NCBI GenBank assembly: GCA_964603585.1
Contig: CAZRVK010000001.1
Coordinates: forward strand, 69,327 to 133,326
DNA: 64,000 nucleotides
Source of the DNA: an uncultured Planctomycetales bacterium
GTDB taxonomy: Bacteria > Omnitrophota > Gorgyraeia > Gygaellales > Profunditerraquicolaceae
Reading direction: 5' to 3'
Shown here: in pieces, positions 10,142-47,133 of the stretch
How the letters are laid out: the number at the start of each line of letters is the position of its first letter
Numbering within the stretch: the first letter of the stretch is position 1
Made by a program: the position numbers and the translations under genes
Notes under the pieces: generated by a model
Databases searched by the model: none
What the model saw: the letters and a program-made list of their open reading frames with translations, nothing else
What the model was told of the DNA's origin: nothing

Positions 10142-10601
10142 CTCTTAATTGTTTATATAACTCCTCAAGCGATTGCGAGATCACCTTTGTTTTATTTACA
10201 ACCGGCATGAAATTCGTATCCCCGTTCCATCGCGGAACAATATGCACATGCAAATGCCCGATAATCCCTGCCCCGGAAACCCGGCCGATATTTATGCCCA
10301 GATTGTATCCCTCGGGCTTAAGGGTACGGTCCAGGATGGCCTTGGCCTTGTTTACCGCCTTGCACAGATCCAGAGCTTCTTCGTCCTTAAGACAGGAAAG
10401 ATCTTTTGCATGCCTTAAAGGCGCAACCAGCAAATGCCCATTATTGTAGGGAAAAATATTCAGCATGCACAGGCAATACCGGGTCCGGAAAACCACCTGA
10501 TCCTGCTGGTTTTTCTTATCACAGAATATACATTTATGCTTACGCCTTGCCGAAACAACGTAATTCTTGCGCCAGGGGGCCCAAAGTCTGTCCATATTCA
10601 A
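10104..10601 (-). CDS. HIT-family nucleotide hydrolase/transferase
   Basis: GHLHVHIVPR histidine-triad motif; N-terminal CxxC. Confidence 0.75.
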   Translation of the reverse strand: MNMDRLWAPWRKNYVVSARRKHKCIFCDKKNQQDQVVFRTRYCLCMLNIFPYNNGHLLVAPLRHAKDLSCLKDEEALDLCKAVNKAKAILDRTLKPEGYNLGINIGRVSGAGIIGHLHVHIVPRWNGDTNFMPVVNKTKVISQSLEELYKQLRDAQSKVDKGFRR

Positions 10602-11089
10602 ACCTTTATTATTTTCGCCGATATATTGTAACTGACTTCGATTATCCCATAGGAATTATACGGAGAGAATATATCGTCCGTCGGGCTTCCGGGATTAAAA
10701 TATAATACGCCGGACCTTTTCTCGTTCAACGGCAGATGGGAATGCCCGAAAACAATTACATCTACATTATCACTCTTGAACTTCGCGGCAACAAATTCGA
10801 TCAACCTGCTGGGATGGCCAAACCCATGGGCTACCCCGATCTTGAATTTACCCACGTTAATGATCTCTTTGTCCGGCAACTTCTCTTTTAGTTCATCGGA
10901 ATCCATATTCCCGGATACCGCATGAACATCCGGACACACCGTACGCAGCTGTTCGATAACCCTTAAATCCACAAGATCGCCGGCATGAATCACCATATCC
11001 ACTTTCTTGAACTCATCAAGGATCTTCTTTGGTATCGCCCTTGCCCGGTCGGGAATATGCGTATCTGCGATCACTCCGATTTTTATCAT
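10598..11089 (-). CDS. YfcE/MJ0936-family metallophosphoesterase
   Basis: GVIADTHIP…HAGDL…GHSHLP motifs. Confidence 0.75.
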   Translation of the reverse strand: MIKIGVIADTHIPDRARAIPKKILDEFKKVDMVIHAGDLVDLRVIEQLRTVCPDVHAVSGNMDSDELKEKLPDKEIINVGKFKIGVAHGFGHPSRLIEFVAAKFKSDNVDVIVFGHSHLPLNEKRSGVLYFNPGSPTDDIFSPYNSYGIIEVSYNISAKIIKV

Positions 11090-11100
11090 CTTATCATTTC

Positions 11101-12687
11101 TTAAACAATGACCCTGGGCTTAGAAAACAGGTCAAACATCTGATTGACATTATTTATATCCCACATCCAGATCTTCTCTTCTAATGCGCGCAAACGGGTA
11201 TTACTATCAATATCATTTAAAGTCACAATTATCTTGCGCTGGGTCTTATGACGGTAACGTTTGCATTCCTTGGAAAATTCGGCAACATCATCCTCGGTCA
11301 AATGGTTGTCTTTGAATGCCATGATCCAAAGGCTCTCAACCGAACGGCCGATCAAACCATTCTTCAAATTACCGTTATTGAATTCCAGGGGTTTTATCTC
11401 GCGAAAATGGTCAAGCCGCAGGCGTTTACGCTCAAACTGGACAGTATCATCGGCAAAAAGACGTAGTAATTCCGCGACCCTTTCTACGATCGGCTTACCT
11501 GCACTAACCAAGAACTCTGCCACCAGTCCTTCGATATATTCCCGGAAAAGGGTTTTCTGGTTTTTTGCGTCAAATGTCAGGGAATTGAATTTCCCCTGGT
11601 AAACAAACCTAAGCCAGAAACCAAAAACCCGGTCATTTATGCTCAAGAAATCACCGCTGCGGCTGATCACATCCAGTTCAAACAAAATATTGATCTGTCC
11701 GCTTAGATCCTTAACGGGTTTACGCAAAACATGGGCAATATCCTTGAGCCGGTTACGCCCGCTGGCAATTTGATACAACACCGCCAGATTCTGATGGTTA
11801 TTCCCGGAATCCATGAACTGTTTTAAGGAACTGGAGAACTTCTGGTTTAATATCCCGGAAGATTCAAAGAGCAGTTCCTGGAGGATATCGACCAGGCTGG
11901 TTTTAGACCTGGCCAGCCCAGAGCTGATCAGCGACAAATAAAACGGGAATCCTCCGGTAAAATGCACGATAAAGTTCTTCAGCCCAGACTCTAAATCAAG
12001 GCCTCCGGCATACTCATGCAGATACTCTTCACTCGAACGTATATCGAAAGGCTCGATCTCCAGCACCTCAAAATTCCCGAACAGAAGGGATAAATTCTTA
12101 GCTAATATCGCTTTAGACTTGAATTTCATCGAACTGATGATGATATACATAGTATTCTTATCCGCCATCAGCGATTTTGACCATTCGGCATATAGGTCCT
12201 TAATCCCGATCCCCTCAAGATTATGGAACTCATCGAATATAACAACTACAGACTTGCCGGTTTCCGCATGGATTATTTCACTTAAATGCAGGAGTTCAAC
12301 AAAACAATTGCTCTTTTTTCTTTTTTCCAGGGTATTTAAGATCGATCGTATCCGGGCAATTGTCTGTGGGATATACCGCTCGGATCTTTCCATCAGGAAA
12401 TTTATATCTTCTTTAAGGTCAATACCGCTGTTGGAAAGAAAATTATACAATAAAACGCCAATAAACCTTCTGGCAAATGCAGGCAGGGTTTCGGGGCGGG
12501 CTTCTAAATAGGCCAGGACGATCCGGCTGTCGTTTAAGCTATTTATCAGTTTATATACCAAAGACGTCTTACCAACCAGTTCATAGCCCAAGATCGCGAC
12601 ATTCTGCCGGTAACCATGGGTTAGATCGCTAACCCGTTTCTTTAAAAGGTCTAAATACTGCTTTCGGCCAAAGAACTTCTCATCCAT
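11101..12687 (-). CDS. ATP-binding protein, Arch_ATPase (PF01637-like) with DUF234-like C-terminal region
   Basis: Walker A GYELVGKTS; Walker B VVVIFDEFHNL; 528 aa. Confidence 0.6.
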   Translation of the reverse strand: MDEKFFGRKQYLDLLKKRVSDLTHGYRQNVAILGYELVGKTSLVYKLINSLNDSRIVLAYLEARPETLPAFARRFIGVLLYNFLSNSGIDLKEDINFLMERSERYIPQTIARIRSILNTLEKRKKSNCFVELLHLSEIIHAETGKSVVVIFDEFHNLEGIGIKDLYAEWSKSLMADKNTMYIIISSMKFKSKAILAKNLSLLFGNFEVLEIEPFDIRSSEEYLHEYAGGLDLESGLKNFIVHFTGGFPFYLSLISSGLARSKTSLVDILQELLFESSGILNQKFSSSLKQFMDSGNNHQNLAVLYQIASGRNRLKDIAHVLRKPVKDLSGQINILFELDVISRSGDFLSINDRVFGFWLRFVYQGKFNSLTFDAKNQKTLFREYIEGLVAEFLVSAGKPIVERVAELLRLFADDTVQFERKRLRLDHFREIKPLEFNNGNLKNGLIGRSVESLWIMAFKDNHLTEDDVAEFSKECKRYRHKTQRKIIVTLNDIDSNTRLRALEEKIWMWDINNVNQMFDLFSKPRVIV

Positions 12688-31144: not shown

Positions 31145-31160
31145 AATTACACCTCCTTAT

Positions 31161-31322
31161 CCAGAAAGGATAACACCGGCGCATTACCGATTAGCGCCGG
31201 GTGTTCCAGAAAGGATAACACCGGCGCATTACCGATTAGCGCCGGGTGTTCCAGAAAGGATAACACCGGCGCATTATACCCAGTCCAGGTACACTGGCGC
31301 AATGCCGATTAGCGCCAGGTGC
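31161..31322 (-). repeat. tandem array of a 45-nt hairpin module (two identical copies, one partial, one diverged) in the leader of the PilZ gene pair
   Basis: unit CCAGAAAGGATAACACCGGCGCATTACCGATTAGCGCCGGGTGTT at 31161-31205 and 31206-31250; each has CACCGGCGC/GCGCCGG(G)TG stem; diverged copy 31292-31321 has CACTGGCGC/GCGCCAGGTG (compensatory C>T / G>A). Confidence 0.8.
31273..31302 (-). promoter_or_regulatory. candidate promoter (TTGCGC-18-TATAAT) embedded in the hairpin-repeat array
   Basis: minus strand: TTGCGC (31297-31302), 18 nt, TATAAT (31273-31278); -35 lies in the loop/stem of the diverged hairpin copy. Confidence 0.4.
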
Positions 31323-31324
31323 CG

Positions 31325-31362
31325 AAAATAAAAAAAAGCAACCCTCATTTCCCGAGAGTTGC
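31325..31362 (-). terminator. rho-independent terminator downstream of the histidine kinase gene
   Basis: minus strand: GCAACTCTC-gggaaat-GAGGGTTGC hairpin then TTTTTTTTATTTT. Confidence 0.65.
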
Positions 31363-31501
31363 CTTTACGAAAATTCTACCGGTATTTTCATTTCACGCCT
31401 CCTCTGCTGCCACTCAAAGGACTCGTCTTTTGCTGTTACCTTATTATACTACTTTTTGATCTTTTGCAAGCTTTTTTTATAATTCTGGATCCAAAGGTTT
31501 A

Positions 31502-33664
31502 TTACTTGGCTAAGGGGAGCTCAATAGTAAAGGTAGTGCCTTGCTGGTATTGGGATTCAAAAGAGATCTTGCCTTTATGCGCTTCGGTAATGATCTTTTT
31601 GATCACATAAAGGCCCAGACCAGTGCCTTTACGATTAGTGGTTTTTGTGGTAAAAAACGGGGTAAAGATCTTGTTTAAATTGCTTTCCTTCATCCCCATA
31701 CCATTATCGATAATTGTAATCTCAAGATTTGCCCCTACGGGCTTGGCATGAAAGATGATCTTTCCGCGGTAACCTTCTTCTTTTAACATAATCCTGCGTT
31801 CAACTATGGAATCATAGGCGTTATCAATAAAATTAAAGAATACCTCCTGCAGTTGCACCAGGTTACCATTTATTTTCGGTGTATCTTGAGGGTAATCGCG
31901 CACAAGATCAATATCAGGAAGCTTGATCTTATATTGCACCATAGCGATCGTACCGTCAATCACCTGATCCAAGGCCAAGGGTTCAAAATGCTCTTCTCCG
32001 GCTTTTGTGTACTTAAGTATCCCTTTAACCACCTCTCCGCCCTGTATGACATTTACCTGTATCCGGTCAAGGGCATGCGCCACATCAGAGATCATCTTCT
32101 GGATCTCCGGCGTGCATTTAGAAACATCAATATCCTTGATCGTATCGATACTATCTCCGGCAATAAGCGACAAGGCATAAAAACGGTTATTGATCTGATG
32201 AGAAAGGCCATAAGCCATAGTCCCGACAGTCGCCATCTTTTCGGTCTCGGCAACTTGCTCGGTCATTACTTTCGCATCTTCATAGAACTGGGCATTCTCA
32301 ATTGCAAGCGCCGCCTGGCTGGCCAAAACCTGAAAGACATCCAGATCGTCCAAAGTATAAATCTGCCCGGAAAGTTTATCCCCTAAAATAACAAACCCCA
32401 AGAACTTATTTTCAAGGAATATCGGAATAACCACCGAAGCATCCAACAGGCGCATATTATCTTCTAAATACTTATAAGTCGGGTTTGTGCTATCCTCCAT
32501 CTGGTGTTTTACTTCTTCATAAAGTAACGGCTCGCGTTTCACCATAATCCAGGATACTAAGGGATTTGCCGCCGGCAACCTAAAAACCGCATTTGTGCCA
32601 TGATGGCGATACACCTGCATTACATATTCATCTTTTTCCGGGTCATACAGGTAAATTGCCGCATGAGAGATATGCACAGTTTTAGTCACAATACGCACGA
32701 TTAAATCCAAAAGCCTTTTTAGGTCACGGACTCTGGTCATACCGATGGAAGCCTGTTTGAGGGTTCTTTGATACTGCTTTTGCTCCTTCAGCAGACGGTC
32801 TTCGGCTTTACGCTGGACAAAGATATAAATAAACGGCCCGACAGTAGCTAAAACTGCCATTAGCCCTAAAGGAACACCCCACCAGTTAGCGCCGAAGAGC
32901 TCAATCAACCTATCCTTAAACCATGCAACAGCCGCAAAAGGAAGACCGAGGACTAAGGTGTAAACTAAAACAAAAACACCCGCGCGAGTAATAGCAACAT
33001 TTACGTCTAAAAGCCTATATCTTAAAATAGCATAAGTTCCTATTATTCCATAAAGAGCAACTCCAAAATTACCAATAGGATAAATATCAATTCCTATGGC
33101 TGGCAGTAAAGTTGAACCTCCTCCAATAAATCCTACGGCAAATCCACCTAAAAGATATAATCCTTGAATATGCTTAAAACCACTACTTTTTCTAATAAAT
33201 CTCACTAATTCATAATGCCCCAACAAAGAAACAAAAACCCAACTACAAGACATTAAAAGATATAATATGGTTGGACTATTATAAAAAAAGTTATAAACGA
33301 GATGCCAATGAGCAAACATTACACCTTCCGGTGTAAAAATAGTTAATAACCAAAAGGTTACTCCTTGCGCATAAATCAAAGCTAAAATCTTTTTCTTATC
33401 TATCCCGCAAAAAACATATATAGTATGATAAAACAAAACCGCCAAATACAATCCTCCAGTAGTAGCTACTTTCCAACTCAACCAAGCTTCACTTGTTGTT
33501 ATGGAACGACTAAGGAGGAAAGTTCCTATTCCCCAAATCAAAACAGATAGATTAAATAGCAACCAAATCTTATGTAATCTTGATTTACCAAATATTAATA
33601 AAATTACAATCAAGATAGAGCTCACAACTGAAATCAATATCCCGGAAATTGCGAACAAATTCAT
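31502..33664 (-). CDS. sensor histidine kinase with N-terminal 7TM-receptor domain and GAF domain
   Basis: ~280-aa polytopic N-terminus (7TM-HK type), GAF region, H-box (LSHQINNRF), HATPase_c (GTGLGLYVIKKII…GTTFTIELP); start overlaps stop of the upstream oxidoreductase gene; no response regulator adjacent. Confidence 0.75.
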   Translation of the reverse strand: MNLFAISGILISVVSSILIVILLIFGKSRLHKIWLLFNLSVLIWGIGTFLLSRSITTSEAWLSWKVATTGGLYLAVLFYHTIYVFCGIDKKKILALIYAQGVTFWLLTIFTPEGVMFAHWHLVYNFFYNSPTILYLLMSCSWVFVSLLGHYELVRFIRKSSGFKHIQGLYLLGGFAVGFIGGGSTLLPAIGIDIYPIGNFGVALYGIIGTYAILRYRLLDVNVAITRAGVFVLVYTLVLGLPFAAVAWFKDRLIELFGANWWGVPLGLMAVLATVGPFIYIFVQRKAEDRLLKEQKQYQRTLKQASIGMTRVRDLKRLLDLIVRIVTKTVHISHAAIYLYDPEKDEYVMQVYRHHGTNAVFRLPAANPLVSWIMVKREPLLYEEVKHQMEDSTNPTYKYLEDNMRLLDASVVIPIFLENKFLGFVILGDKLSGQIYTLDDLDVFQVLASQAALAIENAQFYEDAKVMTEQVAETEKMATVGTMAYGLSHQINNRFYALSLIAGDSIDTIKDIDVSKCTPEIQKMISDVAHALDRIQVNVIQGGEVVKGILKYTKAGEEHFEPLALDQVIDGTIAMVQYKIKLPDIDLVRDYPQDTPKINGNLVQLQEVFFNFIDNAYDSIVERRIMLKEEGYRGKIIFHAKPVGANLEITIIDNGMGMKESNLNKIFTPFFTTKTTNRKGTGLGLYVIKKIITEAHKGKISFESQYQQGTTFTIELPLAK

Positions 33665-35094
33665 ATTTTTTTACTCTCTTTATGCAAAATTAAATCCGCA
33701 GTATCATAACCGCAACTAGCGACAAATGGAATACCACTGCTCAAATTAGTCCAATGTCCAGTTAAATATAAATTCTCAATTTGAGTGTTTTGAGATATAC
33801 TTGGATTCATAAACTGTTCAACCGTACTAGCCCATCCATAAGCTGCGCCACATGAATTTGCAGTCCAATTTCTTAAAGTCACTGGGGAAGCCGAAATCTT
33901 AGTAGAAATACAATTCGACAAATTTGGGATAACCATCTCCGCTTGTTTTATTAATAATTTCATCAATTCATCTCTTTTATGTTGGCTCCAAAACGAATCG
34001 GAATTATATAAAGCATTCGTAGTTAAACAAATCGAAGTTTTATGCGTTTCATAATCGCTCTTAGAAGTTGGGCTAGAAATAACAAAATGGCTGTTTCTTG
34101 AATTAAGAAAATTTGAATAAATTTCCTCTAAATTCATCCCATTAATAACATAAAGATTGGCGGTTAATTCACTTTGATTAAGCGAACATTTATCTTTTAA
34201 TCCTAGATACACCATAAAGCCTGAAAAAGATGAAAGAAAGGAATCAATCTCATGAAAAACCGAAATAGGAATTACCTCCTTATCAATAAGATTAGAATAA
34301 GTCTGAACTAAATCACAAGCAGAAATTACATATTTAGAAACAACTGTTTTGTTTCCTTCAATACAAATCCCTTCAACCTTTTGACGATCATTTACAAGAA
34401 TCTTTTTCACTTGTTTAGATAAAACAATACTGCCGTTTAGGTCTTTAAAACAATCAACTAAAACATTCGAAAAAGTCTGCATCCCCCCGGAGGGATAATA
34501 TCCACCATCAAATATAAACTCCCTCCAAAGTAAACAACCGACAATACCTGATATTTTAAATGAATCCACTCCGGACAGAAGAAATGTAACGACTAACACT
34601 ATAGTTATAAGCCTATGATCACTAAAATATGAACGGACAATTTGTTCAAATGTTTTCGATCGTAAAACAAGTAAATCTTTGGTTTGACTAAGCTCGATAA
34701 ACTTAAAAAAACACTCAATTTGCTTATTCTGTTCAGGAAAACATTTCTGAAAATTATCAATATTCCGTTCGATCTCACTACCTAATGATATTCTGTATTC
34801 AGGAGTAATTACCATATCCGATGGGTTATGCTTAATAAATCTTATTTTATCGGATAATTTAAAATCATTTAATATTTTCGTTAACCGCCCAGTCTTTCTC
34901 AAACTTGAAATACCATGCGCACATGCATCAAACAAATAACCATTTCTCTTAAACGATGTACAATACCCCCCTGCCTGGGCATTTTTTTCTACAATTAACG
35001 TACGCAATCCTGCCTTCGCCAGATAACAGCCACAAACCAAACCGCTGATTCCAGCTCCGATTATAACAGCATCGTAGTCGTAATTTTCTTTCAT
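33661..35094 (-). CDS. FAD-dependent oxidoreductase, phytoene desaturase/amine oxidase (CrtI) family
   Basis: N-terminal DAVIIGAGISGLVCGCYLAKAGLRTLIVEKNAQAGGY dinucleotide-binding motif; 477 aa. Confidence 0.7.
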   Translation of the reverse strand: MKENYDYDAVIIGAGISGLVCGCYLAKAGLRTLIVEKNAQAGGYCTSFKRNGYLFDACAHGISSLRKTGRLTKILNDFKLSDKIRFIKHNPSDMVITPEYRISLGSEIERNIDNFQKCFPEQNKQIECFFKFIELSQTKDLLVLRSKTFEQIVRSYFSDHRLITIVLVVTFLLSGVDSFKISGIVGCLLWREFIFDGGYYPSGGMQTFSNVLVDCFKDLNGSIVLSKQVKKILVNDRQKVEGICIEGNKTVVSKYVISACDLVQTYSNLIDKEVIPISVFHEIDSFLSSFSGFMVYLGLKDKCSLNQSELTANLYVINGMNLEEIYSNFLNSRNSHFVISSPTSKSDYETHKTSICLTTNALYNSDSFWSQHKRDELMKLLIKQAEMVIPNLSNCISTKISASPVTLRNWTANSCGAAYGWASTVEQFMNPSISQNTQIENLYLTGHWTNLSSGIPFVASCGYDTADLILHKESKKI

Positions 35095-35096
35095 AG

Positions 35097-36398
35097 TTAG
35101 TTTGCCTTTTTAAAGATTGCAGCGGCATTAAATCCGGCAAAAGCGCTGCAGACTTTTGCTGCTGTGGTTAGATTGATCTCTTTCGTGCGGGTTATTATAT
35201 CAAGATTGAACTTAGAGTCAAGATTATTACAATTTAAAGTGGCAGGGATAATATTATTCTTTAACGCTAACAAGAGTATTGCAGTCTCAATCAAAGCACT
35301 GGCTCCTAAATTATGGCCGATATAAGGCTTGAATGCGCTGATCAAAGGCGTCTTCGGATGTTTGCCAAAAATCGCGGTGATTGCCAGTGATTCATAATAA
35401 TCGATCACCTGATACCCCACTCCATGAGGACAAATCAGATCAATATCTTCTTTAGTTACACCCGCCTGAACAAAGGCTTTTGTGATCGCTTTTTGATACG
35501 AATCACTCCCTAATTGCGGCACTGTGATCTTCCATCCCTCTAAATCAAACCCTCCGCCCAAATACTCGGCATAGATCTGGGCATTACGGTCTCTGGCATG
35601 TTCATAATCTTCCATGACAAGCCCGACTCCGCCATCGCCAAAGACAAGCCCGGTACTGTCCTTACAAAAAGGCCTGATTATTCCGTCTTTCGAATATATT
35701 CCCAGCCCCTTAAACCACACATATTTATATATATCGGGATAATCAGACGCGGCAACCACACAAACCTTTGCCTGGCGGTTCTTTAAGATCTGTGCTGCTG
35801 ACTCCAAAGCATATAAACCCGAGGCACAGGCATTATTAATAAAAAGCGAGTATTCGGATATATTGAATACCCTGGCAACATGAAAAAGATCGGCAAAGGT
35901 TTGAATATCATAACCGCTTTTTAGAAATGACCGGTAAAATTTATCGATAAAATCCTTTTTGGAGATATCGCTTCTTTTCTTGCCGATGAGCATATCATAA
36001 GCCAAATTGCTTACTTTATAGCCGAACGGCATCAATCCCAGGTTTTCATGCGCAAGGACAAGGCTAATCCCGTTATTTTCAACTTTATAATCTATCTTAC
36101 TATCATCCAAAGCCAGCTTTACAGCCGCAATGAGATAATTAAGGTCGATGATCTCCTCGCCTTCTTTCCAGGCTTTAATATCATCTAATCTGCCTTTATC
36201 TAACCCGAACTTCGAAAGGTCAAAACCTTCTACTTTATGGAAATAAAATTCATCCCAGAGTTCCTCATCAATAAAAACCTTTTCCCGGGACAAATTAACT
36301 TTTTGATCGAGTACCCCTTGCCAAAAATTTTCTTTGCCTATACCCACAGAGCTGATCGGGCCAATACCGGTTATCACAACCCTCTTTTCTTTATTCAT
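35097..36398 (-). CDS. beta-ketoacyl-ACP synthase, FabF/FabB family (Cys-His-His) with N-terminal insertion
   Basis: active-site NNACASG Cys, PHGVGY and IGHNLGASA His motifs; 433 aa. Confidence 0.75.
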   Translation of the reverse strand: MNKEKRVVITGIGPISSVGIGKENFWQGVLDQKVNLSREKVFIDEELWDEFYFHKVEGFDLSKFGLDKGRLDDIKAWKEGEEIIDLNYLIAAVKLALDDSKIDYKVENNGISLVLAHENLGLMPFGYKVSNLAYDMLIGKKRSDISKKDFIDKFYRSFLKSGYDIQTFADLFHVARVFNISEYSLFINNACASGLYALESAAQILKNRQAKVCVVAASDYPDIYKYVWFKGLGIYSKDGIIRPFCKDSTGLVFGDGGVGLVMEDYEHARDRNAQIYAEYLGGGFDLEGWKITVPQLGSDSYQKAITKAFVQAGVTKEDIDLICPHGVGYQVIDYYESLAITAIFGKHPKTPLISAFKPYIGHNLGASALIETAILLLALKNNIIPATLNCNNLDSKFNLDIITRTKEINLTTAAKVCSAFAGFNAAAIFKKAN

Positions 36399-36657
36399 TG
36401 GACCCTTTTTCTAAAGCCTGGCGCACAATCTCCACCGCATGCCTAATCGTAGATATCTTGGGGATTTGTTCATCTTTGATGCGCACCTTATACCGTTTTT
36501 CGATCGCTACCGTCATTTCGATCGCCTTGATCGAGTCTATCCCCAGATCTTGCCAGAAGTTGGCGTCAAGTTTCAACTCCTCAATATTCCTGCCGGTAAC
36601 ATCTGAAACCACCTGTGTTATCTCAACCTCTAAATTATCATTTTTATCCTTTGCCAT
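36391..36657 (-). CDS. acyl carrier protein (dedicated)
   Basis: ORF 36391-36783; likely start at internal MAKDKND (ATG 36655-36657) giving 88 aa; DLGIDSIKAIEM phosphopantetheine-attachment motif. Confidence 0.7.
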   Translation of the reverse strand: MAKDKNDNLEVEITQVVSDVTGRNIEELKLDANFWQDLGIDSIKAIEMTVAIEKRYKVRIKDEQIPKISTIRHAVEIVRQALEKGSNE

Positions 36658-36661
36658 AGAT

Positions 36662-37885
36662 CTACTCCTTTTGAAGGTTAAATTTGCCAAGCAGTAAACA
36701 CGCGTTGTTGCCTCCAAAGGCAAAACTATTGTTGAGCACAATTGCTGTGCTCTGTTTACGGGATTGGTTCGGGACACAATCAATATCGCACTCCGGATCG
36801 GGAGTCTCGTAATTTATTGTTGGAGGGATAATATCATTTTTGACACTAAGGCAGCAGGCAACCGCTTCGATCGCCGATGCCGCCCCCATGGTATGCCCCA
36901 GCATTGATTTTATAGAGCTTACCGGAACTTTGCGATGACTGAAAACCTTGTTGATCGCAGCAGACTCTGCCTTATCGTTGTTCCTGGTGCCGGTGCCGTG
37001 CGCGCTGATATAATCGACTTCATCCGGGGATACGCCAGAACGCAGGAGTGCATTCGACATACACTCGGCAATACCGTCAATATGCGGGCTGGTCATATGA
37101 AAAGCGTCGCAGCTCAAGCCATAACCGAGGATCTCCGCATAAATCGGTGCGTTTCTTTTTACGGCAGAATCCAGGGTTTCAATGATAAGGACCCCGGAAC
37201 CTTCCCCCTGAAGCATCCCTTTCCGGTTTTTGTCAAAAGGCTGGCATTTCTCCGGCGCCATCGCCCGCAGCTGGCCAAACCCGGTAAACGATAAATACGA
37301 AAAAGCATCCGCACCTCCAGCAATAATCAAATCCGCTTTATTCCTCTGCAGAAGATCATAACCATAACCGATCGCATAATTACCCGCAGCGCAGGCAGTA
37401 GTAAATATCCGATTAGGGCCTTTAGTCTTGAATTCAACCGAAACATTCGAGGAGATATTATGTACCGGATACTGGATTATTGACCAGTGGCTGATATTCT
37501 CTTTTCCATGCCTGACCCAGACCGCATCCATTTCCTCTATCTTTTGCGCCTCTCCACTGGTCGTGCCAAAGATAACCGCAGTCTTTTCGGCATTCATCTT
37601 CTTATGGCTTAATTTCGAGTCATGCAGGGCAAGACGGGTAGCCGCAATAGCAAGATGCGATGCCCTGGCCATAAGTTTTATCTTTCGCGGGCTTAGGTAT
37701 TCTTCGGGCTTAAAATCCTTTATTTCTCCGGCATTATGCACAAAGTGGTCTTTAGTATCGAAGAACTCGACTTTAGAGATCCCGGATTTTCCTTTGATCA
37801 GGTTATTCCAGAAAATATCCTTGCCTGATCCGATAGAACTGACCACCCCTAATCCGGTAATCACAACACGCTTCTTTTCCGTCAT
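36662..37885 (-). CDS. beta-ketoacyl-ACP synthase II-like (FabF family, Cys-His-His intact)
   Basis: ORF 36662-37951; likely start at internal MTEKKRVVITGLGVV; TTACAAGNYAIG (Cys), ISAHGTGT (His), SMLGHTMGAAS (His). Confidence 0.8.
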   Translation of the reverse strand: MTEKKRVVITGLGVVSSIGSGKDIFWNNLIKGKSGISKVEFFDTKDHFVHNAGEIKDFKPEEYLSPRKIKLMARASHLAIAATRLALHDSKLSHKKMNAEKTAVIFGTTSGEAQKIEEMDAVWVRHGKENISHWSIIQYPVHNISSNVSVEFKTKGPNRIFTTACAAGNYAIGYGYDLLQRNKADLIIAGGADAFSYLSFTGFGQLRAMAPEKCQPFDKNRKGMLQGEGSGVLIIETLDSAVKRNAPIYAEILGYGLSCDAFHMTSPHIDGIAECMSNALLRSGVSPDEVDYISAHGTGTRNNDKAESAAINKVFSHRKVPVSSIKSMLGHTMGAASAIEAVACCLSVKNDIIPPTINYETPDPECDIDCVPNQSRKQSTAIVLNNSFAFGGNNACLLLGKFNLQKE

Positions 37886-37889
37886 AAGC

Positions 37890-39155
37890 TTAAATCCTGG
37901 TTGCCTTGCCGATAATAAAAGAGATATTGCCTCCGGACGGGCTAAAGGCATTGATCATGATCCGCGATAACTTCTTCTTCTCGGGTTTATTAACCACATA
38001 ATTCAGGTCGCAATCCGGGTCTTTTTCTTTATAATTGGATATCCTGGGAACCAACTGGTTCTCCAAAGCGCCTAACGCCGCAACCGTAGAAAATCCCCCC
38101 GAAACGCTATAACCTTCTCCGACAATCGATTTAACTGCGGTCACGGGGATTTTTTTTGCGTATTTTCCAAAAACAGATTTGATCGCATGCGTTTCGATCA
38201 AATCCGCATCAGGCGTTGAATTGGCATTGGCAAAAATACAGTCAATATCTTCGGGCAAAAGGCCTGCATCCTGCAAAGCCATCTGCATCGCATGCCGCAT
38301 CCCTTCTCCTTTCGGGCTATAGTTATAAAACCGTGCCGGATCAAAACAAGAACCAATCCCTAATATTTCGGCGTAGATTTTTGCTTTTGTATTTAATGCC
38401 ATATTTTTATCCTGAACAACCAAGGCTGTCGCGCCTTCGGAGAAAATGATCCCATTCCTTCTTTTATCAAAAGGGCAGCTCATTATTGGTGTATCATTTT
38501 TAGATCCGGAAAGATAATTAAGCCGGTAAAATCCCAAGAATGTCTGTAAACTTAGATCCTCAACCGCGCCGCAAAGGACAGTATCCGCCCGGTCAAGCAG
38601 TAATGAATCCCGGGCATAATCAATAGCGTCTATTGCCGAACACATACCGGTAGAAAGCGTAGAATTGAACCCTTTAACCTTAAAACGGATGGCCACCCGG
38701 CTGGCAGGAGAATTACCTACTGTACTGGGGAATATCGAAGGATTTACATACGCCGGACCTTCGGTAAGGGATTCCCGGTCAAATTTAGAAATACTATGTA
38801 AACTGCCAAAAGTAGTCCCGACTGAAATCCCGGTGCGTTTTGTGTTAGATTCATCAATGTTTATCTTTGCGTCATCAATACCGAGTTTAGCCGCGCATAA
38901 AATCAATAATGTCGCCCGGTCTAAATCCGTTAAACCCGCAGGCCCTAAGATCGATTTCGGATCGAAACCGCTGATTTCTCCGGCAATATGCACCTTAAGA
39001 TCGGTTGTCTCAAATAAGGTAATCGGATTAAATCCTGTGACAGATCCAAACAAACCCTGCCAAAATTGATCTTTGCCGATTCCGATGGAAGATACTACCC
39101 CGATCCCCGTAACCACCATCCTGCGCGTTTTAAAAGATGTCTTTATCATAATCAA
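37890..39155 (-). CDS. ketosynthase-like protein retaining the active-site Cys but lacking both catalytic His (CLF-like/non-decarboxylating partner)
   Basis: STGMCSAID (Cys present); FabF AHGTSTP replaced by ANANSTP; FabF GHLLGAAG replaced by GEGYSVSG; 4-nt overlap with AAR gene. Confidence 0.7.
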   Translation of the reverse strand: MIMIKTSFKTRRMVVTGIGVVSSIGIGKDQFWQGLFGSVTGFNPITLFETTDLKVHIAGEISGFDPKSILGPAGLTDLDRATLLILCAAKLGIDDAKINIDESNTKRTGISVGTTFGSLHSISKFDRESLTEGPAYVNPSIFPSTVGNSPASRVAIRFKVKGFNSTLSTGMCSAIDAIDYARDSLLLDRADTVLCGAVEDLSLQTFLGFYRLNYLSGSKNDTPIMSCPFDKRRNGIIFSEGATALVVQDKNMALNTKAKIYAEILGIGSCFDPARFYNYSPKGEGMRHAMQMALQDAGLLPEDIDCIFANANSTPDADLIETHAIKSVFGKYAKKIPVTAVKSIVGEGYSVSGGFSTVAALGALENQLVPRISNYKEKDPDCDLNYVVNKPEKKKLSRIMINAFSPSGGNISFIIGKATRI

Positions 39156-40171
39156 AGTATCGGCGCTTCGGGGAGCCAGACTTCAAAACCGTAACGCGCC
39201 GCAATGTCAGCGATCTGGTCCATTTTATCCAGATTAATATTGTCACCTGCGGAATAACTGCAAATCTTTCCTTCCGCCGCTAAAAGAATAGTCTCTGCCA
39301 GGCCCGCTGGAATGATCCCTTTAGGCAATCCCAGATCCATGGGAAAAGGCAATAAAGATGGTGTCTTAATCAACCCGCATTTAACAAGCGTTATATCCGA
39401 GCGGCCTTGCAGGCGGGCGGAAACAGTTTTGTCAACCGTAGCATCAAAAACGATTGCCTGCGCTTTTAATTTTCCTAAATCAAGGCCAAGAGGATCAAAG
39501 GCATCGTCATCGGCAAAAATAACCATATCCGCATCCTGAATTGCCTTTTGCGGAACAGGTTCGATCTTTATATTTATGGGATTAAGTTGTAAAATGATTT
39601 CTTTGAGTTTTTCGAGTTTAACACTGTCGCTTGAAGTAATTGTAAGGCCGGAAAGATACCCGGACAATTTCCGGGAACATAATGAACCAACGGCGGTAGA
39701 AGCCCCGATAATAAGAACCTTCGACTCTTTTAAAGCCAGTCTTTTTGCCCGGGCAATGCGGTATACCGCTTCAAACGCCGACCAGGCAATATAAGTACTG
39801 CCGCTGGTTACCGGAAGGCGAAAACTGCGAAAGGCAGTGTAACCCTGGTCATATAAGATTGAAGTATATCCTCCCATTCCCAAAATCGCCGCACCGAGAT
39901 CATTGGCAAGGCGAGTAGCAGAAATGATCTTTTCCATTGCTAAAATCTTGTTCTCTTTAAGGCAGGCAGTAGTATCAGATAATGAGACAAAAAAGCCGGC
40001 AAGCTGATTATCGTTAGCGCAATAAAAAGGAGCCATTTTATAAGACCTGATACCGTAATTGTTCTTTGATGATATTCTTTGAAACCAGGAGGGAATTAAA
40101 CGGCTTAACCCTAAAGGGCATTTCATACCAGCCGCGTTTGTAGGATGTGTTAAGTATACGAATTTTCTCAT
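39152..40171 (-). CDS. acyl-ACP reductase (AAR)-like NAD(P)-dependent enzyme (COG5322-type)
   Basis: Colinear with cyanobacterial AAR as recalled from memory: GMGGYTSIL vs ALGGFTSII, VTSGSTYIAWSAFEAV vs FTTGNTHTAYVICRQV, KVLIIGASTAVGSLCSRKL Rossmann vs ATVAVVGATGDIGSAVCRWL, conserved Cys in TLVKCGLI, C-terminal AARYGFEVWLPE. Confidence 0.6.
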   Translation of the reverse strand: MRKFVYLTHPTNAAGMKCPLGLSRLIPSWFQRISSKNNYGIRSYKMAPFYCANDNQLAGFFVSLSDTTACLKENKILAMEKIISATRLANDLGAAILGMGGYTSILYDQGYTAFRSFRLPVTSGSTYIAWSAFEAVYRIARAKRLALKESKVLIIGASTAVGSLCSRKLSGYLSGLTITSSDSVKLEKLKEIILQLNPINIKIEPVPQKAIQDADMVIFADDDAFDPLGLDLGKLKAQAIVFDATVDKTVSARLQGRSDITLVKCGLIKTPSLLPFPMDLGLPKGIIPAGLAETILLAAEGKICSYSAGDNINLDKMDQIADIAARYGFEVWLPEAPIL

Positions 40172-40479: not shown

Positions 40480-40508
40480 AATATACATTGCAAAGTATGT
40501 ATTGTCAA
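40480..40508 (-). promoter_or_regulatory. sigma70-type promoter TTGACA-17-TATATT for the HTH/AAR/KS operon
   Basis: minus strand: TTGACA (40503-40508) atacatactttgcaatg TATATT (40480-40485), ~48 nt upstream of the HTH ATG. Confidence 0.6.
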
Positions 40509-40513
40509 GGGTA

Positions 40514-40550
40514 TTTTAAAAAAGAAGGGGGACGGTCTCGACCGCCCCCC
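40514..40550 (-). terminator. rho-independent terminator after the lipoyl-domain gene (mdh-lpdA operon)
   Basis: minus strand: GGGGGCGGTCGAGACCGTCCCCC hairpin followed by TTCTTTTTTAAAAT. Confidence 0.65.
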
Positions 40551-40628
40551 TACAATTATGATCTTCTATTCCAGGCTATTCCTGGGATACGATTATGATC
40601 TCGGCATAACAAGCTACCGGAAAGATTC

Positions 40629-40887: not shown

Positions 40888-42180
40888 CTATTTTAACGCA
40901 TCGCGGATAGATTCTGATAAGGTCGGATGAGCAAATATCGTATCCTTAACTTGAGAAACTTTCAGCCCACAGGTAACGGCTAAAGTCAAAACTGCGATTA
41001 GTTCCGTAGCACGCGGCCCGATTATCGAAGCACCCAGTATCGTATCGGTCCCATTATCAGAAACGATTTTTATAAAACCTTCGGTTTCCCCGGAAATACG
41101 CGCCATCCCGGAACCAAGAAAATCGAATTTATTGACCTTTACCGCTATACCCGCAGATTGAGCTGCTTCTTCTTTTATCCCAATACTTGCGATTTCCGGG
41201 TCAGCAAAAATACAACTGGGGACATTAGTGTTATCCGCCTTCTTTAATCCGCCAGGATTCGCTATATTCTCTGCCGCGATCTGCCCCTGATATGCGGCAT
41301 AATGCGCCAGCATTATTTTAGCAGTGCAATCTCCTGCGGCATAAATATTCGGAATAGACGTGCGCAGATATTCATCCACTGCGATCCTGCCTCCGGTAAT
41401 CTTTATTCCGGATTCCTCAAGGCCTAAACCTTCGGTCATCGGTATACGCCCTGCACAAACCAGTGTCCGTTCAAACATGTCCACCGCACATGCCGAAGCA
41501 TCGGCATTAACAATAACCTTTATCCCTTTTTTCCGGAAAACCCCCTCAAGTTTACGGGATATGTCCGGATCCTCTCCCGGCAAAAGCCGGCTGAATTTCT
41601 CGGCAATCGTAACCTGACTGCCAAGATTAGAAAAAAGGCAGGCGAATTCACAGCCGATCACTCCCCCGCCAATAATTAAAAGAGAATCCGGGATCTGTTT
41701 TAAATCAAGGATATCATCACTGGATAGAATCTTCTTGCCATCGAACTTAAAACCCGGCAGTTGAAATACCTTTGAGCCGGTGGCAATAAGTATAGAATCA
41801 GCGGTAAGCACTTCTGTATTTACCCGGATCTCATTTGCTGATATAAGGCGTGCCGCAGCCGGAATAAGATCGATACCTTTAAGGGAAAAATTCAGGCCCT
41901 GTAAAAGCTGGCTGACAATCTTATCCTTTCGCGAGCACACTTCATTGAAATCTATTTTTATAGAATCACTACGCACACCAAAATCATTGGCTTTTTTCGC
42001 TAAGGAGAATGTTTTTGCGGATTGGATAAACGCTTTGGTAGGAATACAACCACGGTTAAGGCAGGTGCCTCCGGTTTTTTCCTGTTCGATCAATGCCACC
42101 TTTAATCCTAACTCCCGCGCGCGGTGCGCGGCATTGATCCCTGCCCAACCTGCGCCAATTATCGCCAGATCATAACGCAT
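40888..42180 (-). CDS. lpdA: dihydrolipoyl dehydrogenase
   Basis: YDLAIIGAGWAGINAA FAD motif, GGTCLNRGCIPTK redox disulfide, C-terminal HAHPTLSE. Confidence 0.85.
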   Translation of the reverse strand: MRYDLAIIGAGWAGINAAHRARELGLKVALIEQEKTGGTCLNRGCIPTKAFIQSAKTFSLAKKANDFGVRSDSIKIDFNEVCSRKDKIVSQLLQGLNFSLKGIDLIPAAARLISANEIRVNTEVLTADSILIATGSKVFQLPGFKFDGKKILSSDDILDLKQIPDSLLIIGGGVIGCEFACLFSNLGSQVTIAEKFSRLLPGEDPDISRKLEGVFRKKGIKVIVNADASACAVDMFERTLVCAGRIPMTEGLGLEESGIKITGGRIAVDEYLRTSIPNIYAAGDCTAKIMLAHYAAYQGQIAAENIANPGGLKKADNTNVPSCIFADPEIASIGIKEEAAQSAGIAVKVNKFDFLGSGMARISGETEGFIKIVSDNGTDTILGASIIGPRATELIAVLTLAVTCGLKVSQVKDTIFAHPTLSESIRDALK

Positions 42181-43165: not shown

Positions 43166-44251
43166 CTACTCTTTTAGCCTCTTTATAATCGCATCCGCCA
43201 TTTCTTTTGTCCCGGCACTTGTCGGATCATCGCGATTAGGCTTGAGGTCATAAGTAACATTCTTGCCTTCAGCCAAAACATACTGTAATGCCTCCTCCAG
43301 ACGCACAGCCGCCTTATCCTCTTTAAGGTATCGCAGCATCAGCATCCCCGAAAGGATCATCGCTGTAGGATTCACTTTATTTAAACCGGCGTATTTCGGA
43401 GCAGAACCGTGAACAGCTTCAAAAACCGCCAGGTCCATGCCAATATTGGCGCCCGGGGCAATCCCTAATCCCCCGATCAGACCGGCACAAAGATCCGATA
43501 AAATATCGCCATAAAGGTTCGGCAAAACAAGAAGATCATAAAAATGCGGACGCTGAACAAGCTGCATCGACATATTGTCCACCAGCGCCTCTTCAAAAAG
43601 CACCTTACCCTCATACTCCTTGGCCACTTCCCGCGCAACCTTTAAGAAAAGTCCGTCCGTAAATTTCATAATATTTGCTTTCTGTACAGCCGTGACTTTC
43701 TTACGGTTGAATTTTAAAGCGTATTCGAAGGCATACCGGACAATACGTTCCGAGGCAAACTTAGAGATAGGCTTAATGGAGATCCCGGAATCCGGGCGGA
43801 TAGTTTTTTTAGTGAACTTCTCGATATCTTCGATCAAAGTCTTGGTTTGTGACTTGCCTTCTTCGAATTCAATCCCGGCATAAAGATCCTCGCTGTTCTC
43901 TCTGATAATTACCAGGTCGATATTCTTATACAGGCTTTTTACCCCGATATAGGACTTTGCCGGGCGCACGCAGGCATACAGATCCAAGGCATGACGGATC
44001 GCCACATTTACTGAACGAAACCCTCCACCGATAGGAGTGCTGATAGGGCCTTTTAAGGCAACTTTGTTGCGGCGGACAGAATCTAAAACAGCCGAAGGCA
44101 GAAGCTCACCGTATTTATCAAGCGCCGCCTGGCCGGCTAAAACCTCGTCCCACTCGATCTTAACCCCTGTAGCTTCAATACAACGCCTTGCCGCCTCTGC
44201 CACTTCCGGGCCGATACCATCGCCTGGAATAAGGGTAACTTTATGCATCAT
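43166..44251 (-). CDS. isocitrate/3-isopropylmalate/homoisocitrate dehydrogenase family enzyme
   Basis: [13 protein letters not shown]…IRENSEDLY…[14 protein letters not shown] beta-decarboxylating dehydrogenase motifs; 361 aa. Confidence 0.75.
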
Positions 44252-44754
44252 CTTACCTCTGGCAATTTGGCGTATTTCTTATAAAAATTGATCACTCCGC
44301 CTTCCTGCAATAATTTCTGCATGAAATCAGGAAGCGGAGAAACCTTAAAATCGATATTCTTGGTCAAATCACGGACTACGCCATGATCCAGATCAACAGA
44401 TAAAATATCCGTTTCCGCGACCTGGTCCGTATCCATCTCGATCAAAGGCAGGCCGATATTAAAGGCGTTGCGGTAAAAGATCCGGGCAAAGGATTTTGCC
44501 ACAACCGCCAATATCCCGGACTCCTTTATCACAAGCGGCGCCTGCTCACGCGATGAACCCATGCCAAAATTCTTCCCGGCAACGATCATGCAGGAACCTG
44601 GTGAGATCTTGGAAGGGAATTCCGGGTCGATATCCTCCATGATATGTTTTGCCAGTTCCTTTATATCGGTAATAGAGAATTTATACCGTCCGGAAATAAT
44701 AAAATCGGTATTTATATTATCACCTAACTTTATTGCTTTTCCTTCGAGCTTCAT
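44248..44754 (-). CDS. leuD: 3-isopropylmalate/homoaconitate dehydratase small subunit (archaeal-type LeuD)
   Basis: 168 aa; [14 protein letters not shown]…[14 protein letters not shown]. Confidence 0.75.
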
Positions 44755-44817
44755 TTATCGATACTCCTTAAATTAAGCACTATTATGGATCTTGCTAACT
44801 TTCATTGCAGATACTAA

Positions 44818-45870
44818 TTACAGCTGTTTAAACTCGTCGAGGTTTTTAACCTTAGACATGGCCATATCCAGAGTGATCAGCCCCTGCTGGAAGAATTCCT
44901 TAAGGCATTTATCCATAGTCTTCATGCCATACTGACTGCCGGTTTGCAGTAACGTCGGGATCTGCTCAACTTCCTGTTCGCGGATAAGGTTCCGGATACC
45001 GGGAGTAGCGATCATTACTTCGGTGGCAAGGATCCTGCCTTTACCGGAAGCACGCGGAAGCAATAACTGGGAAACTACACCTTGTAAACAGTCTGCCAGC
45101 TGTAACTTTACCTGCTGCTGCTGATGCGGAGGGAACACATCGATGATCCTTTGAATAGTCTGCGGCGCATCAGGCGTATGTAAAGTGGCTAAAACCAAAT
45201 GCCCAGTTTCTGCCGCAGTCAGGGTCGTTGAAATAGTTTCCAAGTCGCGCATTTCTCCTACAACGATGACGTTGGGATCCTGCCGCAAAGTATGCTTTAA
45301 TGCCTCGGCAAAAGAATGCGTATCGGCATAAACTTCCCGCTGTTTAATAATACTTTTCTTATTGGTATGGATAAATTCTATCGGGTCCTCGATGCACATG
45401 ATCAGAGACTCACGCTCGTTGTTGATAAGGTCGACGATCGCAGCCAATGTCGTAGTCTTGCCGACTCCGGTAGGCCCGGTAACCAGCAATAATCCGTTCG
45501 GGCGGCGGGCTAAATCCAGTACAATCGGAGGCAAACCCAGATCCTGGATCCCAGGGATGGTCAAAGGTATACGGCGGAATGCCGCCTCTACCGTGCCTTT
45601 TTGCATATGCACATTGACCCTGAACCGGTCAAGGCTCGGAAGCGCAAGGGAAAAATCCAATTCCAGGTTCTGCTCGAACATCTCTTTCTGCGAATTGGTC
45701 AAAACGCCATAGATCATTCTTTTTAGTTCATCGGCCTTCATGGGAGGGGCACTGGTACGGTTCAACTTTCCGTCTACGCGTAAGATGGGAGGTTCATTTT
45801 CCGTGAGATGCAGATCCGAAGCCTTTTTCTCGACACAGGCTAGCAGTAATTCGCGTATTTCCATAGTCAT
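44818..45870 (-). CDS. pilT: type IV pilus retraction ATPase PilT family
   Basis: LLVTGPTGVGKTTTLAAIV (Walker A), IEDPIEF…VIVVGEMRDLETIS, 350 aa. Confidence 0.85.
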   Translation of the reverse strand: MTMEIRELLLACVEKKASDLHLTENEPPILRVDGKLNRTSAPPMKADELKRMIYGVLTNSQKEMFEQNLELDFSLALPSLDRFRVNVHMQKGTVEAAFRRIPLTIPGIQDLGLPPIVLDLARRPNGLLLVTGPTGVGKTTTLAAIVDLINNERESLIMCIEDPIEFIHTNKKSIIKQREVYADTHSFAEALKHTLRQDPNVIVVGEMRDLETISTTLTAAETGHLVLATLHTPDAPQTIQRIIDVFPPHQQQQVKLQLADCLQGVVSQLLLPRASGKGRILATEVMIATPGIRNLIREQEVEQIPTLLQTGSQYGMKTMDKCLKEFFQQGLITLDMAMSKVKNLDEFKQL

Positions 45871-45879
45871 CTCCCTTTC

Positions 45880-47133
45880 TTATAAATATTTCTCTGGGCT
45901 GGTAATCCGGCCGGCAATCGCCGAAGCCGCCACAGTCGCCGGTGAAGCTAAATAAATAAAAGCGTTGGGGTTACCCATCCTGCCTTTAAAATTCCGGTTT
46001 GCCGTAGAGATCACGTTTTCGCCATCCGCCGGAATGCCATTATGCGTACCGACACACGGCCCGCACCCGCAAGCAACAATGACCGCGCCGGCCTTAATAA
46101 AGATATCTACTAACCCAAGCTGTATTGCCTGCTGGAATATTATACGCGAACTTGGTGCAATAATCAAGCGTACACCTTTAGAAACTTTCCTGGACTTTAA
46201 AACCTTTGCGGCAATCTTTAGATCCTGAAGCCTTCCGTTAGTGCAAGTACCGATAAAAGCCTCATTGATCATAACCTTATTCAGTTTGGCCACGGCGACA
46301 GCATTATCTACACTGTGCGGAGAAGAAACCTGCGGTTTTAATTTTGAAATATCATACTCTATGACCCGCTCATACTTTGCGTCTAAATCGGCCGCGACCG
46401 GTTTGATCTTTCTTTTATTCTTAACACGGGATTTGAGCCAATCCAAAGTAGTTTTATCCTGCGGCATGAACCCGGCTTTTGCTCCCATTTCCACAACCAT
46501 ATTCGAGAATGTAAACCTTCCGTCCATATCCATCTTATCGATTACCGGGCCGGCGAATTCTATGGCTTTATAGGTAGCGCCAGCGGATCCGATATCAGTA
46601 ATAATATGCAGGATCATGTCTTTGGGGAATACCCCTTTAGGCACTTTACCTTTTACGATGATCTTAAATGTCTCCGGGACCTTAAGCCAGTTTTTCCCTG
46701 TAGCTAAGGCGATCGCCAGGTCCGTCGAGCCAACCCCTGTCGAGAACGCTCCTAAGGCGCCGTAGGTGCAGGTATGGCTATCGGCGCCAAAAACCAGGTC
46801 CCCCGGCAAGACCTCTCCGGATTCTGGGATAACTTGATGGCAAACCCCGCAGCCGATATCGTAAAGGCGGGATTTATAATCCTGGGCAAATATGCGCATT
46901 TTTTTATGTACCCGGGAAACCCCTTCGGTAGGAGAAGGAGCGCTATGGTCGATCACCATGCAAAAGCGCGTTTTTAATTCTTTTGTCCCCATCTCCCGGA
47001 TCCGGTCAATAATAATCGAGGATGTCCCATCCTGGCCAAAAGTAAAATCAATATCGCAAATCGCAAAATCCCCTGCCTTAAGGCTACGGCCGGAATGATT
47101 GCTAAGTATTTTTTCTGCAATAGTTTTTCCCAT
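45880..47133 (-). CDS. leuC: 3-isopropylmalate/homoaconitate dehydratase large subunit (archaeal-type LeuC, aconitase family)
   Basis: 417 aa; GVCHQV, GADSHTCTYGALGAF, ACGCGPCVG Fe-S cluster cysteines. Confidence 0.8.
   Translation of the reverse strand: MGKTIAEKILSNHSGRSLKAGDFAICDIDFTFGQDGTSSIIIDRIREMGTKELKTRFCMVIDHSAPSPTEGVSRVHKKMRIFAQDYKSRLYDIGCGVCHQVIPESGEVLPGDLVFGADSHTCTYGALGAFSTGVGSTDLAIALATGKNWLKVPETFKIIVKGKVPKGVFPKDMILHIITDIGSAGATYKAIEFAGPVIDKMDMDGRFTFSNMVVEMGAKAGFMPQDKTTLDWLKSRVKNKRKIKPVAADLDAKYERVIEYDISKLKPQVSSPHSVDNAVAVAKLNKVMINEAFIGTCTNGRLQDLKIAAKVLKSRKVSKGVRLIIAPSSRIIFQQAIQLGLVDIFIKAGAVIVACGCGPCVGTHNGIPADGENVISTANRNFKGRMGNPNAFIYLASPATVAASAIAGRITSPEKYL

Follow-up and report, generated by a model that had tools for sequence, protein, structure and literature searches.

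An amxFabFmut-type ketosynthase homologue in Omnitrophota: a probable inactive, chain-length-factor-like partner of the adjacent FabF-like ketosynthase

The closest described relatives of the genes treated here are amxFabF2 and amxFabFmut, two ketosynthase (KS) homologues encoded in Cluster I of anammox bacteria. Each is inactive when expressed alone, and the two co-purify as an obligate heterodimer of a KS and a chain-length-factor-like (CLF-like) subunit (10.64898/2026.05.19.726425). Together they decarboxylate malonyl-acyl carrier protein (malonyl-ACP) and form acetoacetyl-ACP, using a single substrate tunnel that runs via the active site of amxFabF2 and is lined by F135, T138 and V139 of amxFabFmut; mutants in the tunnel residues, of which F135 and V139 are named, shift chain-length preference in crosslinking assays (10.64898/2026.05.19.726425). 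Here we describe a relative of amxFabFmut, which we call mut, encoded on a 64-kb stretch of Omnitrophota DNA (contig CAZRVK010000001.1; hereafter the window) next to the gene for a triad-intact FabF-like ketosynthase, KS2. By analogy with the anammox proteins, mut is very probably a catalytically dead amxFabFmut-type subunit of an obligate heterodimer with KS2, in which it would shape the acyl tunnel. The subunit type is already known: it was flagged in 2009, when the deviant active site of Kuste3606 was listed as Val/Asn/Lys/Glu (Rattray et al., PMC2649909), and its structure was solved in 2025-26. What is new is the Omnitrophota member.

Loss of the catalytic triad

The mut open reading frame (ORF) is intact on the minus strand over 37890..39155, where the ORF lister placed the start at TTG 39155, and the 419-residue product is identical to database protein P0001. 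Both Pfam ketoacyl-synthase domains, PF00109 and PF02801, match it. We modelled the protein with AlphaFold2 (mean pLDDT 81, pTM 0.86) and searched the model against the Protein Data Bank (PDB) with Foldseek, in a library that ran to April 2026 and was without the anammox structure 9S5H; the top match was B. subtilis FabF (TM 0.88), which is also the nearest fold reported for amxFabFmut (10.64898/2026.05.19.726425). The domains and the model thus agree with a preliminary description of the gene, in which the overall FabF fold was said to be retained, and mut is predicted to adopt the FabF/KAS II thiolase fold over its full length. Low model confidence was confined to a helix-loop-helix at 116-143 and to residues 215-226. 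The helix-loop-helix corresponds roughly to segment 110-130, which is disordered in an amxFabFmut homodimer crystal, and we count this in favour of a subunit that pairs with KS2.

We took the register of the catalytic residues from phmmer alignments to solved structures and from a MAFFT alignment that included two reference FabFs. The first His motif, AHGTSTP in FabF, reads ANANSTP in mut, with N308 in the His column, and the second, GH(T/L)LGA(S/A)G, reads GEGYSVSG, with E345 in the His column. Both catalytic His residues are therefore lost, as had been proposed from the letters alone. The accompanying proposal that the nucleophilic Cys had been kept was a register error. T-G-M-C-S of mut lines up with T-A-C-A-T, free of gaps, in the MAFFT alignment and in three phmmer alignments (to amxFabFmut, Listeria FabF and Bacillus FabF), so that the catalytic-Cys column holds Met169, and Cys170 lies one residue later, where canonical FabFs carry A, S or T. 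With Met169 in that column the whole Cys-His-His triad is gone, and the mistaken premise, once corrected, makes mut more CLF-like, not less.

The same His substitutions were sought in orthologues and found throughout. Our sample comprised 120 database proteins with 57-69% identity to mut, mostly named Candidatus Omnitrophota; all 120 have Asn in the first His column, Glu in the second and the active-site Lys. The catalytic-Cys column is more variable (M 91, F 12, I 10, Y 4, L 1, V 1, S 1), as is the +1 column (C 100, S 16, G 3, T 1). An alignment of 14 diverse orthologues (A1) has 77 invariant columns. These alignments indicate that triad loss with Asn, Glu and Lys fixed in every orthologue is a selected state and not the outcome of chance or decay.

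Proposed pairing with KS2

Among solved structures, the nearest relative of mut is amxFabFmut of Brocadia fulgida (PDB 9S5H chain C, E 8.5e-104), ahead of the best canonical FabF (E 1.2e-67) and of amxFabF2 (9S5H_B, E 7e-67). For KS2 it is amxFabF2 (9S5H chain B, E 8e-148), and for the ACP of the same operon the anammox amxACPs 7QV0, 7AUF and 9S5I_E head the list. Identities to the anammox proteins are 45% for mut, 55% for KS2, about 35% for the ACP and 30-32% for a phytoene-desaturase-family flavoprotein (PDH) encoded further downstream. In a neighbour-joining tree, a rough method, the anammox FabFmut clade is nested within a wider triad-less clade. By sequence, then, amxFabFmut is a nearer relative of mut than either canonical FabF or amxFabF2; the proteins and loci nearest to it come from metagenome-assembled genomes (MAGs) of Candidatus Omnitrophota and not from ladderane-producing anammox hosts.

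The likeness to the anammox pairs (Broful02170/02171 and KustE3606/3605; PDB 9S5H and 9S5I) extends from single residues to gene content. The FabF fold, the loss of the full triad, the retained Lys and the Glu in place of the second His are common to all. In place of the first His, mut and the Brocadia/Kuenenia group have Asn, and Scalindua has Cys. The tunnel segment reads FPSTV in mut and FPNTV in B. fulgida, and F140, T143 and V144 of mut, the counterparts of F135, T138 and V139, are invariant in alignment A1. In both settings the dead subunit stands beside a triad-intact KS of the FabF2 type, in a locus with an amxACP-like ACP and a PDH-like flavoprotein. The differences begin with the host, an Omnitrophota bacterium rather than an anammox planctomycete. 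In the catalytic-Cys column mut has Met, with Cys at +1, whereas the anammox proteins have Val or Thr: the preprint gives the replacement in amxFabFmut as Val (10.64898/2026.05.19.726425), and the B. fulgida protein carries V-T at the columns of Met169 and Cys170. The first His motif is NANST in mut but NAYSG or CANSS in anammox bacteria, position '342' is Ser instead of Gln, and the gating-Phe position is Pro instead of Arg or Asp. The window has neither FabZ nor a B12-dependent radical S-adenosylmethionine (B12-radical SAM) gene and carries in addition an acyl-ACP reductase-like (AAR-like) gene, a third ketosynthase (KS3) and a sensor kinase. The two genes run mut-KS2 in the window and FabF2-FabFmut in anammox bacteria. 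FabF2 is the upstream gene in both anammox loci that we fetched (L081 and L082), whereas the preprint places amxFabFmut just upstream of amxFabF2 (10.64898/2026.05.19.726425).

The two genes of the window are separated by 4 nt (Table 1), with AGGA about 10 nt upstream of the KS2 ATG, and a gap this short suggests that they are translationally coupled. The preliminary description had placed the stop of the neighbouring ketosynthase gene 4 nt downstream of mut; it is the KS2 start codon that lies there.

A scan of genome collections yielded 225 candidate stretches that were confirmed as relatives, of which the best 80 were kept as loci. These come from Omnitrophota, from Nitrospirota/Thermodesulfovibrionia, from a Syntrophales MAG, from a "Deltaproteobacteria" MAG and from some MAGs labelled Planctomycetales. 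Synteny was counted in the loci with enough flank, 16 with at least 55% identity and 43 more distant. Mut is followed by KS2 and the ACP in all 16 close loci, 11 of which also have KS3 and 13 PDH, and the order mut-KS2 is kept in 24 of the 43 more distant ones, some of them from Nitrospirota. FabZ, 48-52% identical to amxFabZ, is present in 61 of the 80 loci and FabG in 59; in one close relative (L003) FabZ separates mut from KS2 and FabG immediately precedes mut, in a cluster that further includes the AAR-like gene, the ACP, KS3 and two PDH genes.

Independent evidence for a physical pair came from fused proteins. We searched 50%-identity representatives exhaustively and considered the best-scoring 150. 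Many of the single-domain representatives share a signature in which Gly precedes a non-Cys residue, the first-His residue varies, and Lys and Glu follow. About 40 of the 150 (among P0124-P0267) are single polypeptides of about 740-880 residues, roughly 27-36% identical to mut, that join an N-terminal KS with the Cys-His-His triad to a C-terminal triad-less KS; most carry the Lys/Glu signature of mut, the dead half often reading Gly-x, Lys and Glu as mut does. Such fusions of an active and a dead KS are Rosetta-stone evidence that the two kinds of subunit form a pair.

In classical CLFs, Gln takes the place of the KS catalytic Cys. In type II polyketide synthases (PKSs), much as proposed here, an active KS (KS-alpha) has an adjacent homologous subunit, the CLF (KS-beta), that lacks the catalytic Cys and gives the acyl tunnel its shape where the two subunits meet. 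The similarity of mut to their subunits is much lower than to amxFabFmut (E 8.6e-38 to 1TQY_B of actinorhodin synthesis and E 1.6e-55 to 6KXD_A of the ishigamide pair Iga11/Iga12). Mut and its orthologues have hydrophobic Met, Phe or Ile where CLFs have Gln; none of the 120 orthologues has Gln in that column. Gln-type (GQx) representatives with the same Lys/Glu signature do occur among the 150 best-scoring ones. The genetic context also differs from that of type II PKSs, being fatty-acid synthase-like (FAS-like), with FabG and FabZ in relatives and with no cyclase or aromatase genes. A further described relative is Kuste2805, the 'non-canonical FabB' of Kuenenia, listed with Phe163/Asn298/Asn300/Lys328/Glu333 (Rattray et al. 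2009, PMC2649909, Table 2). As far as the published signature alone can be compared, it resembles the Met/Asn/Asn/Lys/Glu of mut, and Phe occupies the Cys column in 12 of the 120 orthologues; the Kuste2805 gene differs in lying beside a radical SAM gene in a cluster of its own, and no protein with a Phe/Asn signature was found among the representatives closer to mut than amxFabFmut is.

The anammox homologues, the 4-nt spacing, synteny, the tunnel residues and the fusions all support what the preliminary description had proposed, namely that mut is probably a CLF-like inactive partner of the adjacent active FabF-like KS. Heterodimer formation, partner-dependent activity and the tunnel role we infer from the B. 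fulgida homologues. In the mechanism that we propose, mut and KS2 would be translated together and would then form the obligate heterodimer. KS2 would provide the sole active site, carrying out malonyl-ACP decarboxylation and Claisen condensation on the ACP of the operon itself. Mut would supply the second half of the dimer, including the helix-loop-helix, with Phe140, Thr143 and Val144 lining and limiting the acyl tunnel, and would also supply part of the ACP docking surface; by completing the tunnel it would influence chain length. In the clusters of relatives that we examined, FabG and FabZ occur, no enoyl reductase was recognised and the PDH-like flavoprotein is nearly always present. From this combination, our best guess is that the operon product is an unsaturated or otherwise unusual acyl chain that the PDH-like flavoprotein modifies further.

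Alternative roles of mut and its partner

Several observations weigh against pairing of a dead mut with KS2. Cys170 is kept in 100 of the 120 orthologues (83%), and we have no explanation for this conservation. It would fit a protein that is not dead, in which Cys170 together with Asn308, Lys340 and Glu345 runs a different, non-decarboxylative acyl-transfer or coupling reaction. That Cys follows directly on the replaced residue also in related representatives (GFC, GMC, GIC and GEC), at a position taken by A, S or T in canonical FabFs; the invariant N308, K340 and E345 imply constraint on the former active site; and an alternative substrate and function have been suggested for Kuste3606 (Rattray et al. 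2009, PMC2649909). Yet S, G or T fills the Cys170 column in 20 of the 120 orthologues, and the anammox proteins have T, A or N there, so the residue is dispensable in the family. Moreover, the invariant Gly168 is the small residue that precedes the nucleophile elbow, a geometric argument that would place Met169, not Cys170, at the elbow. Given these replacements, the gap-free alignments and the Gly at -1, we judged Cys170 unlikely as a shifted nucleophile. On its own, the B. fulgida protein was not labelled by crosslinking probes based on acyl-ACP, and that of K. stuttgartiensis neither decarboxylated nor condensed (10.64898/2026.05.19.726425). We therefore give little credence to a different reaction at this site. 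A decaying pseudogene of a duplicated fabF, which the loss of all three catalytic residues might by itself suggest, has practically no chance of being correct and is excluded by the conservation data: the ORFs are intact, Asn, Lys and Glu are invariant in the 120 orthologues, alignment A1 retains its invariant columns, the fold prediction is confident and the family occurs in several phyla.

The remaining points against the pair concern the partner. Adjacency to an active KS is not universal in the family, since in 19 of the 59 related loci the dead-KS gene is not followed by an active KS gene over the next 4 kb or so. Most of the 19 form a separate Omnitrophota subclade at about 50% identity (L025, L029, L031, L032, L040, L043, L049, L053, L058, L079 and others, with mut at about 10001-11230). 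In L032, the only such locus annotated in detail, the 10 kb to each side of the dead-KS gene contain no FabF-like gene; FabG and FabZ (both above NCBIfam cut-offs) come directly after the dead-KS gene, which lies beside riboflavin biosynthesis genes. The dead subunit could accordingly serve housekeeping fatty-acid synthesis in this phylum. Such loci, and a crystal of Scalindua amxFabFmut that is a homodimer (10.64898/2026.05.19.726425), would suit a subunit that acts alone, either as a homodimer binding acyl-ACP or as a scaffold or regulator independent of a KS. Against this, the homodimer has a disordered dimerisation motif, and the anammox proteins of K. stuttgartiensis and B. fulgida are inactive when expressed separately (10.64898/2026.05.19.726425); in the clade of the window itself KS2 adjoins mut in 16 of 16 loci, and the fused KS/dead-KS proteins exist. 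We regard a solitary role for mut as highly unlikely. The dimer interface described in the preprint has a positive dead subunit and a negative active one (10.64898/2026.05.19.726425), and a crude net-charge proxy for this asymmetry gave 0 versus -1 for the window pair, but it is uninformative, having missed the asymmetry of the B. fulgida control pair. Finally, KS3 has an intact triad, belongs to the same tightly packed operon and is present in 11 of the 16 closest loci, which makes it a possible alternative or additional partner, perhaps alternating with KS2. Many loci with the mut-KS2 pair lack KS3: it is absent from 5 of the 16 close loci, from all 43 distant informative ones (24 of them with mut-KS2, and Nitrospirota among them) and from anammox Cluster I. 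The neighbour to which mut is apparently coupled in translation is KS2, and KS2 is also far closer to the crystallised partner amxFabF2 (E 8e-148, compared with E 1.6e-43 for KS3). We see only a small chance that KS3 is the functional partner, alone or in turn with KS2.

The operon and its relation to ladderane Cluster I

Mut is the second gene of a compact operon (Table 1; domains assigned with Pfam and NCBIfam) whose intergenic spacings are 2, 4, 4, -8, 2 and -4 nt. A terminator-like hairpin and a promoter-like site at 40480..40551 are likely to mark its start. Neither FabG nor FabZ was found anywhere in the 64-kb window.

Table 1. Features of the mut operon in the window (positions within the 64-kb stretch)
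Feature	Position	Strand	Description
Terminator-like hairpin of the upstream lpdA-like gene	40551..40526	minus	11-bp stem, 8 GC pairs; from consensus scan only
Promoter-like site TTGACA-17-TATATT	40508..40480	minus	11/12 hexamer matches; from consensus scan only
AAR-like gene	39152..40171	minus	First gene of operon; 339-aa NAD(P)-binding protein; relative of cyanobacterial acyl-ACP reductase / PigE N-terminal domain
mut	37890..39149	minus	amxFabFmut-type triad-less ketosynthase homologue; 419 aa from ATG 39149
Tunnel segment F140-P-S-T143-V144	38718..38732	minus	Counterpart of F135/T138/V139 in B. fulgida amxFabFmut; invariant F, T and V in A1
Met169 and Cys170 codons	38640..38645	minus	FabF catalytic-Cys column and +1; from alignments
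Asn308 codon	38228..38226	minus	First catalytic His column; from phmmer/MAFFT alignments
Lys340 through Glu345	38115..38132	minus	Lys340 codon 38132..38130; Glu345 codon 38117..38115
Spacer GCTT	37886..37889	minus	4 nt between mut stop (TAA 37892..37890) and KS2 ATG 37885
KS2	36662..37885	minus	amxFabF2-type ketosynthase, 407 aa; Cys, both His, Lys and gating Phe all present
ACP	36391..36657	minus	88 aa, DS motif; nearest solved relatives are anammox amxACPs
KS3	35097..36398	minus	Third ketosynthase; Cys-His-His triad intact; N-terminal half divergent, with insertion
PDH	33661..35094	minus	Phytoene-desaturase-family flavoprotein by Pfam/NCBIfam; similar to anammox Cluster I PDH
Sensor kinase	31502..33664	minus	7TM-GAF-HATPase; last gene of operon; overlaps PDH stop by 4 nt
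Terminator-like hairpin after operon	31366..31334	minus	Consensus match only

The AAR-like protein may be a second nucleophile-less product of the same operon, judging from its alignment: where AAR has its catalytic Cys294, the window protein has Gly, its close relatives L003, L009 and L011 have Pro or Asp, and more distant relatives (L010 and L076) still have Cys. At the other end, a membrane sensor kinase shares one operon with genes for acyl-chain synthesis, and in many Omnitrophota loci the kinase gene likewise follows the lipid cluster. The GC content is 0.37-0.39 over 32001-36000, which spans KS3, PDH and the kinase, compared with about 0.45 elsewhere in the window. Downstream of the operon, at 31160-31276, lies a perfect intergenic tandem repeat of a 45-bp unit (2.6 copies, 100% identity), each copy with a short GC-rich hairpin inside it. 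A dihydrolipoamide-dehydrogenase-like gene (40888-42180, minus strand) directly adjoins the cluster upstream, as it does in L003, L009 and L057; a similar gene (L081 14407-15840, 32% identity) adjoins Cluster I in the Brocadia-family locus but not in the Scalindua locus, which may be coincidence. Further upstream, also on the minus strand, a gene for a T2SSE/PilT-like ATPase (44818-45870) lies between those for the large (45880-47133) and small (44248-44754) subunits of an aconitase-family enzyme, and this group (44248-47133) precedes an isocitrate/isopropylmalate dehydrogenase gene (43166-44251).

The two fetched anammox loci read ACP-FabZ-FabF2-FabFmut-PDH-B12-radical SAM on one strand. Four of the five Cluster I components other than the radical SAM enzyme, the ACP-, FabF2-, FabFmut- and PDH-type genes, lie together in the operon of the window, and for each of the ACP, FabZ, FabF2, FabFmut and PDH-like genes there are counterparts in loci of Omnitrophota and Nitrospirota. 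The similarity of the window PDH to the anammox Cluster I enzyme (225-230 bits) far exceeds that to solved structures of CrtD/CrtI (68 bits); many relatives have two PDH-like paralogues in tandem (for example L003 16851-19692). No match to the B12-radical SAM gene was found in the 64-kb window or in the related clusters, and only weak matches (about 23% identity) outside the clusters turned up, in 5 of the 80 loci.

antiSMASH "ladderane" clusters have been noted in Omnitrophota and other non-anammox phyla, with no explanation offered (10.1101/2022.12.20.521206), and a shared pathway to polyunsaturated chains, which anammox bacteria would later cyclise, has been suggested (Rattray et al., PMC2649909). 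It is conceivable, if on balance doubtful, that the Omnitrophota and Nitrospirota clusters are a non-cyclising counterpart of Cluster I that is without the B12-radical SAM enzyme only. Four of five components in one operon, with FabZ in most relatives, would narrow the ladderane-specific chemistry to that enzyme. Were this so, the clusters would yield an acyl intermediate that is linear and probably unsaturated, or else a related lipid, and only the radical SAM step would be specific to ladderanes. Cluster I would then not be confined to ladderane producers, contrary to what has been stated, and there would be a comparative route to reconstituting ladderane synthesis, in which the anammox radical SAM enzyme is added to a non-anammox cluster.

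The family of dead ketosynthases is much wider than the anammox bacteria, reaching into Omnitrophota, Nitrospirota/Thermodesulfovibrionia and some Desulfobacterota-type MAGs, and from the spread of its members we conclude that FAS-like systems with CLF-like partners are general in several anaerobic phyla. These relatives provide many natural variants for probing how a dead subunit sets chain length.

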